A stretch of DNA of 64,000 nucleotides from a virus. Its lineage: Duplodnaviria; Caudoviricetes. The stretch spans positions 64,001 to 128,000 of the IMG/VR virus record IMGVR_UViG_3300031867_000005. One strand, 5' to 3'. The notes below the pieces were generated by a model. That model saw only the letters and a program-made list of their open reading frames with translations. It made no database searches and was not told the origin of the DNA. Shown in pieces: positions 873 to 62,344 of the stretch; position 1 is the first letter of the stretch; each line of letters opens with the position of its first letter. The position numbers and the translations under genes are program-made.

Positions 873-2627
873 TCAAAATCCATATTCTGAAACCTCCTCT
901 ATTTCAATTTCATCCACTAAAATTTGTGGCTTTCTTCGTCCGCCCCATTCATTAATATTACCTCTGCCTGCAACAGTGATAGATAACTTTCCACTCTTAT
1001 TCTTTAATTCTTCAATTAAGTCAGTTGCTTTAAACTTTATATAAGTAACATCATTAAACTCGAATCTAATTGTATCATTATTCTTTCCAATTACTGAATA
1101 ACCTTGATTTGGAATTGTAATTCCTTCAACAATAATAATTGGCTCTTCACAACCCTGTCCCCAGAATTTTTTTCCATTATCTAAGTCTTCAATTAGATCT
1201 TTAATATAAGAACAATTTCCCTTTATAATAAAGTCTGCCTCATAAAAACCCTCATTAAAGTTTATATCCTTTAATTTTTCGTTTGCATATTGAGTAAGTT
1301 TTTCGATATCTTGATTCAGGATTCCCTGACCGAAAGCGTTAGCATGACCCTGACAAAATTCCATCAGGTTACTATCAAGTAAGAACTGTCTAAAGTCCTT
1401 TAATTCCGTTTCTCCTCTCCCTCTTGCTGAACCTCTAAAATACCCATCAGGACACGTCCTTCCTAACATTACCGGTTTTTTATATTTAGCTGAAATTCTC
1501 ATTGCACACAAGCCCGTCAATGTAGATGGAATATCCATATCGTCCGTATTTAAAATAATAATCTTATTATCATTCAAACTATTATTCAAAATCTGTATAT
1601 CTAGCAGTTCAATTGCCTTATCCGTTTCTCTATTTTGTCTTGCTTTTGCATTAACACAATTTCTAACTGATTGTGTGCAAATTGTTTCTGTCAAACCTTT
1701 TTCTCCCCTTTTTGTAGAGGGAACTTCAAGTTCAGGGGTTATAAATGCTTGGAAAAGTCTTTCTTTTTCGATATTAGAACCGACTCTTATCAGTGCATTA
1801 ACTAATGGAGTTAAATAAAATGCAACTCCAATCTATGTTAGCGGCCCATCACCTAATGAGTAAGACTGCTTTTCGATTAATTCTTTTAGGAACTGATTCT
1901 TGATATGAGATAATCCATAGTCACAAATTAAGCGGTTCTCAATCGTATTCATTTTCATCATATCAGAAATTTCGCTAAAGGCCGCCAAATCTAAATAATC
2001 ATTAGCATAGTTTATTCCAAACAATTCATCTAAGTAACAAATGAATTTGTATACAACGCCTACGCCACTTAATTCTTTATTCTCATATTGTTCAGATAAT
2101 TGATTATTTATTACAATTGCATCTTCGCTATAGGAATCCGCAGAGTGATGGTCGAGGATCAGGACATCCATTCCCATTTCTTTTAATTGTTTATGTTCCT
2201 CATAATCATTACTAGAACTATCAGGCAATACAACTAAATCCCATTTTTTCTCGCCCTCAAAAACATCCATTATAGTTCTTAGTCCATGTTCTTTTCCAGT
2301 GGGAATGTGATATTCAATTGTGAAATCATATCTGTCACTTAAATGTTCTGTTAAATAATTATAAAACATTGCGGCCGAACCATAGCCGTCACAATCAGAA
2401 TCCACGATCAAATAAATTCTACAACCTTTTTCCAAATGGCTAATTAATAATTCTGCTCCCTCTTTCATGTGGTCTAAATTAAGAGGGGATAACAAATTCT
2501 TTTCAAATGATGGATAGAAGAAATCTCTTCTCTTGTCTTCCTCATTAGGCAAAACTCCTCTATCCTTTAAAAGTTCAATTAAAAAATCATCTTTAATATC
2601 ATGACTGGTTCTTCTAATATACTTCAT
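873..2627 (-). CDS. recJ: RecJ-like DHH ssDNA exonuclease; 1 TAG=Gln at 1833
   Basis: DSDCDG, LDHH, ELSGVGV, RGSARG, GHANAFG; the two ORF pieces join in frame through LT[Q]IGVAFYLTPLVNALIRVG. Confidence 0.9.
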
Positions 2628-3679
2628 TACAACCAGACCGCCTCCTTATATAATTTCAAAAAAGTTTCTTTTCCTTTATCTAGGGGTGAATCTTTTAATT
2701 CTAATAAATTCTTTTGGTCATAAATAAAACCTATTTGACATCTTAATTTATAACGCTCGCACATTTTCTTTAATTTATTATAATATTTTTCTTTACCTTT
2801 GTAATCTTCTCCTTCCTTATCGAATGCAATTAAAATTCTTTCTACTCCTAACTTAAGTAGTAATTCCGCTTGATAATTATGAAAATTACTGCCACAGGCC
2901 GCAACACATATATTATTACCATGCCCAAACATAGTATCATACAATAGAACAGATTTTTCTCCTTCTGCGACTACAGCCATTCTCTTTTTCCTAATGTTCT
3001 CTTTAATAAAGTTTAATCCATAAAGGTTATATCCCAAAGAATGAGCTAATATTTTCCCCTCAATTTGAATTGGCATATATTTTCCAAGCTCAATATCTTC
3101 TTCGTTCAATGCACGTCCCCTTATTCCTATTAAATATCCATTTTCATCATAATGAGGAATGATAATTTTATTTTGGTCAATTGAATATTTAATTCCAAAA
3201 TATCTCATTGATTCTTCACTGATGCCATCGTCAAGCCATTCTTTTGTTGGATAGAAAGAGAAGGTATTAAGAATTGATGGATTTAAATGATTAAAATTAA
3301 CATGAACTTCTTGAGCTGGGGTAAAGGCTGAACGATAAGCTTGACTGAACCCTTCTTTCTCAGTCTTATAAGAATCTCCAATGATTACTAATACTATATC
3401 TTTGTAGAAATGATATGGGATACCTAATAATTCATAACGCCTCTTAAAAAGCTCATAAATATTAAAATTGTCGCCGCAATCAGTATAGCAATGGAACTTT
3501 TTATTTCTCTTATAATAATAGAGTTTCATACTTGCTTCTTCAGGATTCTCATTATGGCAAATCGTTTTAAACTGAATATAATCATCATGTTCTATATAAC
3601 TATCACTACCTAAGTTTGTTACTAGCTCAATAACCCTTTCTGGAGTTAAACTTTGTTCTAATTCTTTTAAATCAATCAA
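2627..3679 (-). CDS. DNA primase (Zn-finger + TOPRIM)
   Basis: ICHN...FHCYTDCG Zn finger, IIIPHYD...GIRGR, VAEGEKS, AFDKE; next to helicase. Confidence 0.85.
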   Translation of the reverse strand: MIDLKELEQSLTPERVIELVTNLGSDSYIEHDDYIQFKTICHNENPEEASMKLYYYKRNKKFHCYTDCGDNFNIYELFKRRYELLGIPYHFYKDIVLVIIGDSYKTEKEGFSQAYRSAFTPAQEVHVNFNHLNPSILNTFSFYPTKEWLDDGISEESMRYFGIKYSIDQNKIIIPHYDENGYLIGIRGRALNEEDIELGKYMPIQIEGKILAHSLGYNLYGLNFIKENIRKKRMAVVAEGEKSVLLYDTMFGHGNNICVAACGSNFHNYQAELLLKLGVERILIAFDKEGEDYKGKEKYYNKLKKMCERYKLRCQIGFIYDQKNLLELKDSPLDKGKETFLKLYKEAVWL

Positions 3680-60786: not shown

Positions 60787-60850
60787 GCTCTATTTCACAT
60801 TTGAGAGGGGTTAATTACCCCTTTCTTTTATTTTAAGGAGGATTAGTGTA

Positions 60851-62344
60851 ATGAAGAAATTACTTTGTTTATTTACAAGTCTTTTAATGATTGGAATGTT
60901 TATGCCTTTAAAGGTTTTCTCAGAAGAAGGAATTGATTTACTGAATTATACAGATAAAGGAGAAATATTGGGAGTCGCTTCTGCATTTTCCATTTTTGTG
61001 GAAGAAGATTTCGGAGCTAATGGTTGTGATTGTGAGGGGCGCATTTATGCGGGTCACAGTGCCAATGTAGGGGAGAGTAGGTATTATAGCACTATATATG
61101 ATAATGGAGCTAGTGTTGTAATTGGAGATGGAATTTTAAGTAATTTTGATACAGGTCATAGAATTTTTGTTTATGGAACTCATGGTACAAATTTATTAGA
61201 GGGCGGCCAAGTCTATCAAGCTGACCTTTTTGATAAGGAAGAAACTTTCAGACAGTTAAAAAGAAAAAGTATTGAACTTTCTTATTATAAAGCCGGAGAG
61301 ATAAGAGTTAATGAAAATTGGAGTTCTCAAATTGACTTTATTGGAGAAGACCCTAAACTCAATGTCTTTAATTTAGACCCCAATGTGATTACTTCTTGTA
61401 ATTATTTCTTTAATTATGATGTTCCAGAGGGGTCATATGTAGTTGTAAATGTAAGCGGAAAAGAGAACACAGCTTACACGCAACTTTATGGAATGCAATA
61501 TGCGGGTCATCGTTCTACAAATAATAAAGATGAAATAAATAAAAGAATTCTTTTTAATTACTATGATACTGATAATTTGATACTCGCTGGCACAGGAACT
61601 TTTTATGGAACAATTCTAGCACCTTTTGCAAACGTAACTGATGATATTATTGAGGGGACACACTATACTGGAGGAATTATTGCTAAAAATTATTTAGGTG
61701 GTGTAGAATGGGGTAATTGTACTTTCGATGGAGGTGATAACTATAATGAAGTTATTAAAACAGAAGAAACTACTACTGCCATTTTTACTTCCAATACTCC
61801 AGCTAACACCACATCAGTATGTTCAACAGAGAGTAAAGGAACTACAGTTGGAGAATCAGCTACTAATACTAAAAATACAACCATTACTACACAAAGAGAG
61901 AAATATTCTACTACAATTACAACTTCAACAACAACAGATTTACCTATTACTTCAACAACCTCAGGAAATACTACAGAAACTTTCAAAAGGTCAGAAGTAT
62001 ATAATTCAACAACAGGAACAGAAACCACAAGATTCAGAACTACCTCTGGACTTAGAAGTAGCACAGAAACAACTCAAACTATTAGACCAAATAATGACAC
62101 GGCCGCAGCCAGTTCAACTAGTAGAGAAACCATCAGAATTGGAACTGATACAACAGAGACATCAACGTCTATTTCAACAGTGGCTACAATTACAGAAACA
62201 AATTCAAATGATAGTGAAGTAAGGAAGAATGGCGCGGCCGCCTCTGATTCTACTCGTATGCCTGCAAAAACAGAGGATAGAATTATCTTTGTGGGAATTG
62301 CGTTATTGATTGCGATTGTGGGATTGTTTATTACTAAGAAATGA
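60851..62344 (+). CDS. Secreted/cell-surface protein, choice-of-anchor A-like domain, Thr/Ser stalk, C-terminal anchor; no TAG
   Basis: Signal peptide; DCEGRIYAG, RILFNY, GTILAPFA; PAKTED + TM + KK. Confidence 0.75.
   Translation: MKKLLCLFTSLLMIGMFMPLKVFSEEGIDLLNYTDKGEILGVASAFSIFVEEDFGANGCDCEGRIYAGHSANVGESRYYSTIYDNGASVVIGDGILSNFDTGHRIFVYGTHGTNLLEGGQVYQADLFDKEETFRQLKRKSIELSYYKAGEIRVNENWSSQIDFIGEDPKLNVFNLDPNVITSCNYFFNYDVPEGSYVVVNVSGKENTAYTQLYGMQYAGHRSTNNKDEINKRILFNYYDTDNLILAGTGTFYGTILAPFANVTDDIIEGTHYTGGIIAKNYLGGVEWGNCTFDGGDNYNEVIKTEETTTAIFTSNTPANTTSVCSTESKGTTVGESATNTKNTTITTQREKYSTTITTSTTTDLPITSTTSGNTTETFKRSEVYNSTTGTETTRFRTTSGLRSSTETTQTIRPNNDTAAASSTSRETIRIGTDTTETSTSISTVATITETNSNDSEVRKNGAAASDSTRMPAKTEDRIIFVGIALLIAIVGLFITKK

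Follow-up and report, generated by a model that had tools for sequence, protein, structure and literature searches.

Excess of GCSGC, the word behind the frequent GCGGCC sites of an AT-rich phage genome, tracks a lineage of large gut and rumen phages

Why does an AT-rich phage genome carry the all-G/C hexamer GCGGCC so often? The stretch of DNA that raises this question (the window, 64,000 nucleotides long) comprises bases 64001-128000 of IMGVR_UViG_3300031867_000005, an IMG/VR virus record of 178,685 bp (rated complete by CheckV). The phage is of a gut or rumen type, and the GC content of the window is 30.7%. An earlier note on the window listed 32 sites for GCGGCC or its reverse complement, GGCCGC, where 1-2 would be expected; it proposed that biased repair by a C5 methyltransferase and a Vsr-like nuclease had created them, or that they were a Chi-like or self-recognition signal. 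We found that the excess is real, that it belongs to an excess of the shorter word GCSGC (where S is G or C) across a lineage of phages, and that substitutions that create this word are favored in close relatives.

All 32 of the listed positions do carry GCGGCC or GGCCGC:

GCGGCC/GGCCGC loci (32), both strands, exact match: 1841, 1980, 2371, 2897, 3997, 5611, 6235, 6678, 6845, 13390, 13522, 14251, 14988, 16839, 20360, 20520, 22409, 23685, 24076, 28747, 39770, 40942, 43652, 45356, 53010, 55453, 55481, 58752, 59807, 61203, 62101, 62234

Counted by strand, the window has 35 hits (16 on the plus strand and 19 on the minus strand); three of the 32 loci are palindromes, which are counted twice. The low expectation was also borne out: 100 dinucleotide-preserving shuffles of the window gave a mean of 1.87 sites (standard deviation, 1.3; maximum, 6). 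Genome-wide, GCGGCC is the most over-represented hexamer: composition predicts 5.2 strand hits, and there are 86 (72 loci, including 14 NotI sites), a 16.5-fold excess. The 15 nucleotides on either side of the 35 hits showed no extended consensus beyond the hexamer itself.

Could the hexamer be a by-product of the encoded proteins? To call genes, we treated TAG as a sense codon (220 genes, covering 88% of the genome) because the coverage by open reading frames rises so far when TAG is read through: frames of at least 100 amino acids cover 57.5% of the genome with the standard code and 86% with TAG as sense. A single frame of 2,037 amino acids (40006-46119, plus strand) contains 39 TAG codons, and the replication genes for GyrA, GyrB, and ligase contain none. 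TAG is a genuinely recoded sense codon in this phage. The alternative code in which TGA encodes tryptophan was rejected, as it added little coverage.

As a null model, we shuffled synonymous codons inside each gene, which keeps both the protein sequence and the codon usage. The excess persisted (86 hits versus 19.5 ± 3.1, z = 21.5). Within genes, we observed 76 hexamers and expected about 9.5, and each of the six frames was 6-25 times above its own null. Read on the coding strand, there were 21 hits as GCG GCC, 15 as xGC GGC Cxx, 1 as xxG CGG CCx, 8 as GGC CGC, 6 as xGG CCG Cxx, and 25 as xxG GCC GCx. Two of these frames encode Ala-Ala and hold 46 of the 76 in-gene hits, as would be expected if the hexamer were a coding artefact, arising from Ala-Ala or Gly-rich peptides together with codon choice. 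However, every frame is in excess when proteins and codon usage are kept, the excess is also found in intergenic DNA, and the codons involved are otherwise rare (GCG and GCC make up 10% and 12% of Ala codons, and CGG makes up 2% of Arg codons). We see essentially no chance that a coding artefact explains these sites. The earlier description of the hexamer as occurring in both orientations and several frames, with rare codons, was accurate; all six frames are used. Because the excess survives the codon-preserving shuffle in all six frames, it acts at the level of DNA, and it is far beyond chance.

The hexamer is nevertheless not the unit. GCSGC (that is, GCGGC or GCCGC) occurs 207 times in the genome, versus 33.4 expected; this 6.2-fold excess makes it the top pentamer, and under the codon-preserving null its z score is about 20. 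The earlier note had also seen that these cores are frequent. The window contains 74 GCSGC sites (31 GCGGC and 43 GCCGC), of which the listed hexamer loci are a subset. As the excess resides in the pentamer, a maximal-order Markov model already predicts 58.9 hexamers (86 were observed). Similarly, the palindrome GCGGCCGC, which is made up of two overlapping GCSGC words, has 14 sites in the genome, and its 28 strand counts are fully predicted from the overlapping heptamers (30.1 expected under the Markov model). Three of these sites lie in the window:

23685-23692, both strands, GCGGCCGC palindrome, exact match
53010-53017, both strands, GCGGCCGC palindrome, exact match
62234-62241, both strands, GCGGCCGC palindrome, exact match

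Thus, the excess of GCGGCC stands, but the choice of GCGGCC as the unit does not: the unit is the degenerate palindrome GCSGC, and GCGGCC is the form that a lineage-wide excess takes in this phage. General clustering of G and C was considered and rejected, as most of the all-G/C hexamers are at or under expectation. Those that are raised are all built on GCSGC or CCGCC, including GCGGCC (observed/expected ratio [O/E] of 16), GCCGCC (12), CGGCCG (9), and GCGGCG (7); GGGCCC, CCCGGG, GCGCGC, and CCGCGG have O/E of 0.4 or less. The related words CCGCC, CGCCG, and CGGCC are also enriched, in a graded way.

To see how widely the excess is shared, we searched with GyrA, a nuclease (described below), and NrdD, which turned up relatives in IMG/VR and in one metagenome-assembled bin. 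A DNA-level search of GenBank phages for relatives yielded short gyrase-like matches only. The relatives are as follows:

G001, G002, and G003: from IMG 3300045988, 135-163 kb, mutual identity of 95-97%, GCSGC O/E of 11.6-12.3
G004: a fragment, GCSGC O/E of 7.3
G005: 110 kb, 34% GC, apparently standard code, GCSGC O/E of 5.6
G006 contig C1: 166.8 kb, TAG-recoded, GCSGC O/E of 7.1
G007: 157 kb, with terminal repeats, GCSGC O/E of 12.5
G008: 143 kb, 42% GC, GCSGC O/E of 5.4
G009: 134 kb, GCSGC O/E of 7.3

As controls, T4 showed no excess of GCSGC (O/E of 1.1), Staphylococcus phage K had no sites at all (6.9 expected), and three unrelated large gut phages had O/E of 0.15-0.69. When the proteins of this phage were searched for in G003, G005, G006 contig C1, G007, G008, and G009, all six proved to be relatives: they all share a structural block, DnaE, DnaB, a DnaG-like primase, and RecJ, and most of them also share Sak4 and gyrase. 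Because the enriched genomes share these structural and replication genes and the non-enriched phages do not, we conclude that the GCSGC excess tracks a phage lineage. GyrA is only 51-69% identical across the enriched relatives, yet the same word is kept, and the individual sites turn over. More broadly, about 47 of 63 loci from gut and rumen phages in IMG/VR had O/E of 3-17. Contrasting the gene content of enriched and non-enriched phages did not single out any one factor, as the comparison is confounded by the core that all six enriched genomes share. A literature search on over-representation of GCGGC in phages found nothing relevant.

A bin labeled "uncultured Clostridia" has one relative as its contig 1 (77% identity in NrdD), which makes this bin a candidate host. 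On the bin's phage contig, there are 206 GCSGC sites versus 28.9 expected (O/E of 7.1); in 220 kb from eleven other contigs of the bin, there are 14 versus 24.9 expected (O/E of 0.56), so the enrichment of the phage contig is about 13 times that of the candidate host. Similarly, there are 25 copies of GCSGCSGC on the phage contig and a single copy in the remaining ~1.5 Mb of the bin. The phage and the bin both show extreme avoidance of GATC and strong avoidance of CGCG. A host search with the GyrA of G005 against genome contigs gave no match. If the link to this bin holds, then the GCSGC excess is a trait of the phage and is not host-wide, which speaks against both methylation and repair by the host and imitation of the host's Chi sites. 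As an aside, contig L132 (CANRAW010000001.1, 166,779 bp), a TAG-recoded phage of this lineage, is the largest contig of a GTDB species-representative bin ("uncultured Clostridia bacterium"), and bin contig L143 (24.6% GC, GATC O/E of 1.6) looks mis-binned.

These counts bear on whether the host drives the excess, with a host methylase and methyl-directed mismatch repair writing the word into whatever DNA replicates there, or with the word mimicking host Chi sites as a defense against AddAB or RecBCD. Chi sites of Firmicutes contain GCGG, and the Chi site of Bacillus subtilis is AGCGG. The many gut and rumen phage contigs in IMG/VR that show the excess would also suit a host-driven process, as would the existence of a model for GCsGC as a highly iterated palindrome (HIP) (PMC4390886). 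However, a genome that uses Chi sites or HIPs carries them in excess, and the sole candidate host bin has an O/E of 0.56. Furthermore, A is not preferred before GCGGC (23%), and the two orientations are about equally common (101 GCGGC versus 106 GCCGC). Nor was there an excess in the three unrelated large phages, from similar samples, whose sequences were read completely, and each of the six enriched genomes that we compared by protein turned out to be a relative of this phage. We consider a host-driven origin to be very unlikely. The Chi-like signal of the earlier note is not supported either: there is no strand bias, and the candidate host bin, whose link to the phage is circumstantial, shows no enrichment. 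Chi sites and DNA uptake sequences do resemble GCSGC in being short GC-rich words that occur about once per kb and within genes in all frames, but they have a strand orientation, and the cell that reads them has them in excess in its own genome; GCSGC shows neither feature, as far as the candidate host bin indicates.

Within the phage genomes, the word is spread broadly. In both this phage and G003, GCSGC is enriched in all six frames, and the excess is of similar size in genes with no TAG, genes rich in TAG, and intergenic DNA. Sites are found in early genes, late genes, and spacers, on both strands, at about 1.2-2.3 per kb in the lineage (1,158 per Mb here, 2,016 per Mb in G003, and about 2,350 per Mb in G007). 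The local ratio of GCGGC to GCCGC tracks GC skew only, and the coding-strand counts are 96 and 90. The spacing between sites is Poisson-like or slightly clustered (coefficient of variation of 1.05-1.29). The excess is less evident in two kinds of sequence. First, genes that are shared with relatives have O/E of 5.8-6.7, versus 2.4 for genes without homologs there (p = 4e-5). Second, the earlier note had pointed to a GC-richer segment in which it saw no hexamers:

32580-33990, plus strand, GC-richer segment (40.1% GC) inside a 524-amino-acid open reading frame with no Pfam or PHROG match

This segment is indeed GC-richer, and it has one GCSGC, versus 0.9 expected from its own composition and about 5.6 expected at the genome's 6.2-fold excess (Poisson P of about 0.02). 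The gradient between shared and unshared genes and the unenriched 40%-GC segment both fit a gradual accumulation of the word in resident DNA.

Why, then, does the word take the form of GCGGCC in this phage? We examined the base before and after GCGGC in seven genomes (this phage, G003, G004, G005, G006 contig C1, G007, and G008). C at position -1 accounts for 0-3% of sites where the O/E of CGCG is 0.16 or less (this phage, G005, G006 contig C1, and G007) and for 23-31% where it is 1.58 or more (G003, G004, and G008). Similarly, C at position +1 accounts for 0-2% where the O/E of GGCC is 0.41 or less (G004, G005, and G006 contig C1). In other words, the flanks of GCGGC follow each phage's avoidance of four-base restriction palindromes. 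This phage avoids GTAC (O/E of 0.11), CGCG (0.15), and GATC (0.26). The relatives that tolerate CGCG favor CGCGGC, GCGGCG, and the palindrome GCCGCGGC. In this phage and in G007, CGCG is avoided, GGCC is tolerated beside GC, and GCGGCC and NotI sites are carried (103 hexamer hits and 13 NotI sites in G007). Because this phage avoids CGCG, its GC-rich extensions run through GGCC, which gives GCGGCC and GCGGCCGC. Outside of the GC-flanked context, GGCC is depleted, with 37 sites here and 36 in G007; the total number of GGCC expected from composition is about 107 and 94, respectively, and the codon-preserving null gives a total of about 99 for this phage. C follows GCGGC in 42% of cases here, 10% in G003, and 45% in G008. 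The hexamer is the result of flank filtering plus a positive preference for C at +1, and the avoidance rule covers the excluded flanks only.

The sets of avoided palindromes differ among the relatives: G004 avoids CCGG (O/E of 0.03) and GAATTC (0.06), G005 avoids GGCC (0.01), G006 contig C1 avoids CGCG (0.00), CTAG (0.00), and GATC (0.04), and G007 avoids CCGG (0.03) and GATC (0.03). This suggests that their hosts have different restriction systems.

To ask how the sites arise, we used the three close relatives G001, G002, and G003 (105,654 three-way aligned columns with 4,376 substitutions). This trio is our only source of rates: we sought a second closely related trio among the 63 loci and found only pairs. 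With a star tree, at third codon positions, transitions from A or T to G or C (W>S) that create GCSGC occurred at a rate of 0.061, versus 0.014 for other W>S transitions (odds ratio of 4.7, p = 3e-10), and the reverse transitions (S>W) inside GCSGC occurred at a rate of 0.051, versus 0.046 for other S>W transitions (odds ratio of 1.1). The genealogies of the trio are mosaic (chi-square of 2216 on 200 degrees of freedom), which can lead to changes being mis-polarized. Since this makes the star tree unsafe, we repeated the analysis with a local outgroup, dropping the locally most divergent genome within each 0.5- to 2-kb interval. Again at third codon positions, W>S transitions that create GCSGC were favored over other W>S transitions (odds ratios of 3.8-6.3, p of 0.013 to 2e-5), and the loss of GCSGC had odds ratios of 1.2-1.5, which were not significant. 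When we matched to equally GC-rich contexts, the odds ratios were 2.1-2.3 for creation and 0.7-0.9 for loss, the latter again not significant. The gains came from all positions of the motif (9 from GCAGC, 7 from GTGGC, 6 from GCGGT, and 4 from GCGAC). Overall, the creation of GCSGC is favored 2- to 6-fold and its loss is not detectably slowed, so the broader suggestion of the earlier note, that something biased creates these sites, was reasonable. In the same alignment, third-position W>S transitions become about 5-fold more frequent from AT-rich to GC-rich neighborhoods, compared with only 1.8-fold for S>W transitions. This amounts to a broad tendency for GC clusters to grow in a genome with 30% GC.

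We favor, with about an even chance of being right, a creation-biased substitution process that is tied to the lineage's own replication and repair machinery. The lineage's substitution process would preferentially turn one-off neighbors into GCSGC and its GC-rich extensions, and existing copies would decay at about the background rate. Such a process might be creation-biased mutation or mismatch correction, comparable to the ratchet proposed for HIPs in cyanobacteria. A flank filter would then act: C before GCGGC would be excluded by the avoidance of CGCG, and the GC-rich flank would go to C after the word, giving GCGGCC or, with two overlapping words, GCGGCCGC. The carriers are large AT-rich gut and rumen phages with a DnaE polymerase, DnaB helicase, DnaG-like primase, RecJ, Sak4, and, mostly, gyrase.

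Several points weigh against this explanation. That the bias is mutational, rather than due to weak selection, is our inference, as is any assignment of it to an enzyme. Matching for GC content cuts the excess of gains to about 2-fold and brings the ratio for losses to 0.7-0.9, with wide error, and these context-matched rates would also be expected from weak selection or biased gene conversion with a scaled strength of about 1. The rates come from one mosaic trio and 9-27 gain events. Losses outnumber gains (66 versus 38 without polarization and 26 versus 16 with the local outgroup), which may point to a system out of equilibrium. Avoidance does not, by itself, account for the 42% of GCGGC sites that are followed by C in this phage. 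Finally, the link between the bin and the phage is circumstantial, and their overall profiles of palindrome avoidance correlate only at r of about 0.6.

If selection is at work, then GCSGC could be a phage-specific signal: a protein of the lineage would read the word, and weak selection would keep about 1 site per 0.5-1 kb. Candidate readers include the lineage's DnaG-like primase (2627-3679), which would have to find places to prime in AT-rich DNA, as well as its gyrase and any nuclease or packaging factor able to distinguish the phage's DNA from that of the host. Such a signal would fit with the retention of the word among relatives with GyrA just 51-69% identical, even as single sites turn over, and with its co-occurrence with a lineage-specific set of primase, helicase, and polymerase. 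The density of sites is on the scale of Okazaki fragments, with the same pattern on both strands, and an enrichment of about 13 times that of the candidate host bin means that the word could mark "self." The context-matched rates (gain of about 2-fold and loss of about 0.7- to 0.9-fold) fit a scaled selection of about 1, and the genes shared with relatives are more enriched than those without homologs there. On the other hand, site loss was not significantly below background in any version of the test, the spacing is not regular, there is no strand bias beyond GC skew, and the graded set of related words is enriched as well. We view a selected signal as possible but doubtful. A combination of the two ideas, in which a sequence-directed writing process of the lineage (a replication or repair activity that turns near-matches into GCSGC) makes the word a "watermark" of phage DNA only, and a phage protein reads it as a self/non-self or priming signal, seems unlikely to us, though if it were true, a virus would have a drive like that of the HIPs.

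We now turn to the mechanism that the earlier note proposed: a C5 enzyme would methylate GCGGCC or a sub-site of it, and the nuclease would turn the resulting T:G mismatches into C:G, creating sites. The genes in question are in the window:

16420-17343, minus strand, C5 cytosine methyltransferase 1 (PF00145, E = 1.6e-22, profile positions 62-322; nearest to M.HhaI)
57457-58368, plus strand, C5 cytosine methyltransferase 2 (PF00145, E = 1.6e-36; two in-frame TAG codons)
22441-22869, minus strand, stand-alone PD-(D/E)xK nuclease, predicted to have a Vsr- or I-Bth0305I-like fold (fold match of the AlphaFold2 model)
25070-25384 and 27138-27419, minus strand, paralogs of the nuclease, within 5 kb, in the replication module

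The C5 methylases are not required for the excess. G001, G003, G008, and G009, which are 94-100% complete, have no PF00145 gene, and their GCSGC O/E is 5.4-12.3; in G008, moreover, 45% of GCGGC is followed by C. A point against methylase 2 in particular is that G006 contig C1 has a 52%-identical homolog and just 5 GCGGCC versus 4.4 expected. G007, the other relative that is both AT-rich and GCGGCC-rich, does have a C5 methylase, which might seem to support the proposal, but it has no detectable similarity to either of the C5 methylases here. Every complete genome encodes some methylase, and the families differ (C5 and D12, D12, or N6_N4). In particular, a variable methylase slot (16003-17343, minus strand), about 2 kb from gyrA and gyrB, has the C5 enzyme here, a D12-class enzyme in G001 (54646-55182), and an N6_N4 enzyme in G002 and G003 (G003:159049-159618), despite the 95-97% identity of these three genomes. 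This looks like the cassette replacement of anti-restriction methylases.

The two C5 methylases here are small (303-307 amino acids), and comparison to solved structures for their specificity gave family-level similarity only (DNMT3 and M.HhaI). The nearest solved chains to methylase 2 are the catalytic domains of DNMT3A/B/C; its gene is followed by a D12-class methylase that begins at about 58371. Methylase 1 looks circularly permuted, with its motif-I region matched downstream in the same frame, and it also matches plant DRM2 (domains-rearranged methylase). C5 methyltransferases from the Bacillus phages SPbeta and phi3T are multispecific and target GGCC and GCNGC. Those are enzymes of Bacillota phages that pair exactly the two sub-sites that overlap in GCGGCC, but they protect sites and are not known to enrich them. 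The enzymes in this phage are also small, and the lineage as a whole does not conserve them.

The description of the nuclease as Vsr-like holds for its predicted fold but not for its family. Its AlphaFold2 model (mean predicted local distance difference test score of 89) has its best match among nucleases in E. coli Vsr (1cw0_A), with a Z score of 9.9 and a root mean square deviation of 3.4 over 113 residues, and it matches 1vsr with a Z score of 9.2; I-Bth0305I, at 9.1, is tied with Vsr (within 1). These matches came from VIA-align, and Foldseek alone found no significant match. Across the whole genome, nothing matches the Vsr profile (PF03852) at E <= 1, and the nuclease itself has weak matches to DUF2726 and PHROG matches to homing-endonuclease families. 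Residues D52, E66, H72, D93, K96, and C100 are invariant, and G005 has four copies. The nuclease has syntenic orthologs across the lineage, including in relatives without any C5 methylase, and its gene is about 5 kb from methylase 1 and not adjacent to it. The domain is also found in HNH endonucleases of Kayvirus, Bacillus, and Lactococcus phages and in G017-G019. It is not sufficient for the excess because the GCSGC O/E of Kayvirus and G017-G019 is 0-0.7.

Biased repair of T:G mismatches should also deplete the neighbors of the motif that differ by a C-to-T change. For the hexamer, we saw no depletion of the transition neighbors (C>T or G>A), and both GCGGTC and GCGACC are enriched about 2-fold. 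Among the neighbors of the pentamer, only GCWGC (where W is A or T), at the central position, is depleted, and only relative to the codon-preserving null (0.70-0.73; z = -6.8 here and -8.2 in G003); the other transition neighbors of GCSGC are at 0.8-1.6. This depletion of GCWGC speaks for the proposal, as do the depletion of GGCC outside of the GC-flanked context (37 versus about 99 in all) and the presence of two C5 methylases and a Vsr-fold nuclease in this genome. Yet gains occur at all five positions of the motif rather than at one methylated C, and no position within the word stands out as hot or protected in its C>T rate. Together with the dispensable methylases and a nuclease that lacks a match to the Vsr family, these results largely refute the mechanism for the GCSGC core, and we consider it extremely unlikely to be the driver.

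The model for this proposal is Dcm and very-short-patch repair by Vsr in E. coli, which enriches CCWGG and depletes CTWGG. What we see is similar in being a repair-type bias, at the DNA level, that raises a short GC-containing palindrome, with a Vsr-fold nuclease encoded in the genome. However, the effect in E. coli is small, is limited to the T:G product of one methylated C, and clearly depletes the T-containing neighbor. Here, the excess is 5- to 16-fold, gains occur at all positions, the T-containing neighbors of the hexamer are undepleted, the C5 methylases are dispensable, and the nuclease falls outside of the Vsr family.

The earlier note's other analogy, to the HIPs of cyanobacteria, was apt: GCsGC is the "alternative HIP" of Cyanothece PCC 7822 and is the top palindromic pentamer among 97 cyanobacteria (Elhai 2015, PMC4390886). 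HIPs reach densities of 1000-2000 per Mb; a cognate methylase is predicted in every HIP genome, and the genome of Cyanothece PCC 7822 also carries GCsGC-specific methylases (PMC4390886). In the proposed ratchet, mismatch repair fixes mutations that create methylation sites, without selection for any function (PMC4390886). The phage trait involves the same word, which is 100% G+C, is a degenerate palindrome, and is an extreme outlier in O/E. It too is found in coding and non-coding DNA, at comparable densities (1,158 per Mb here and up to about 2,350 in relatives, versus 1000-2000), and one-off and extended variants of the word are raised as well. A creation-biased repair model also fits the raised gain and unslowed loss that we observed. 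There are also differences: the carrier is a phage lineage instead of a cell, the candidate host bin lacks the excess (O/E of 0.56), and no methylase family is conserved across the enriched phages, in which C5, D12, and N6_N4 enzymes swap in one slot. Also, repair directed by G-meC in the HIP model is itself unproven. We would call the trait HIP-like and keep the term HIP for its original meaning.

Short GC palindromes are usually lost from phages, which thereby escape restriction. In this lineage, one GC palindrome has been gained 5- to 12-fold, at a cost in rare codons, while GTAC, GATC, and CGCG are avoided in this phage. This points to an unrecognized force on viral DNA, which could be a motif-creating bias in mutation or repair or else a phage-specific reader of DNA. 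The question of how HIPs originate also moves into small genomes with many near-identical metagenomic relatives, where it is directly testable. On a practical level, the excess of GCSGC explains the frequency of NotI- and EagI-type sites in these AT-rich genomes, and GCSGC is a strong marker for the lineage that could help to separate such phage contigs from the bacterial contigs that they are binned with.

We also made several minor observations. Phages of the phAss-1 type are TAG-recoded as well; we rejected them as members of this lineage, as they are siphoviruses with 44% GC. The GyrA homolog of G004 (L009:10001-12388) has an in-frame stop other than TAG, present both with table 11 and with TAG read as Q, which might be explained by a frameshift, an intron or intein boundary, or a further recoded codon. 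In the window, a UvrD-like helicase (49459-51648, plus strand) is split by an intein that includes a LAGLIDADG homing-endonuclease domain; the Pfam matches to Intein_splicing and LAGLIDADG_3 fall between the motifs of the helicase. Lastly, 60851-62344 (plus strand) encodes a 497-amino-acid protein with a putative ice-binding-like adhesive domain (PF20597), which is probably a receptor-binding or fiber protein; this open reading frame bears four of the listed hexamer loci (61203, 62101, and 62234/62236).

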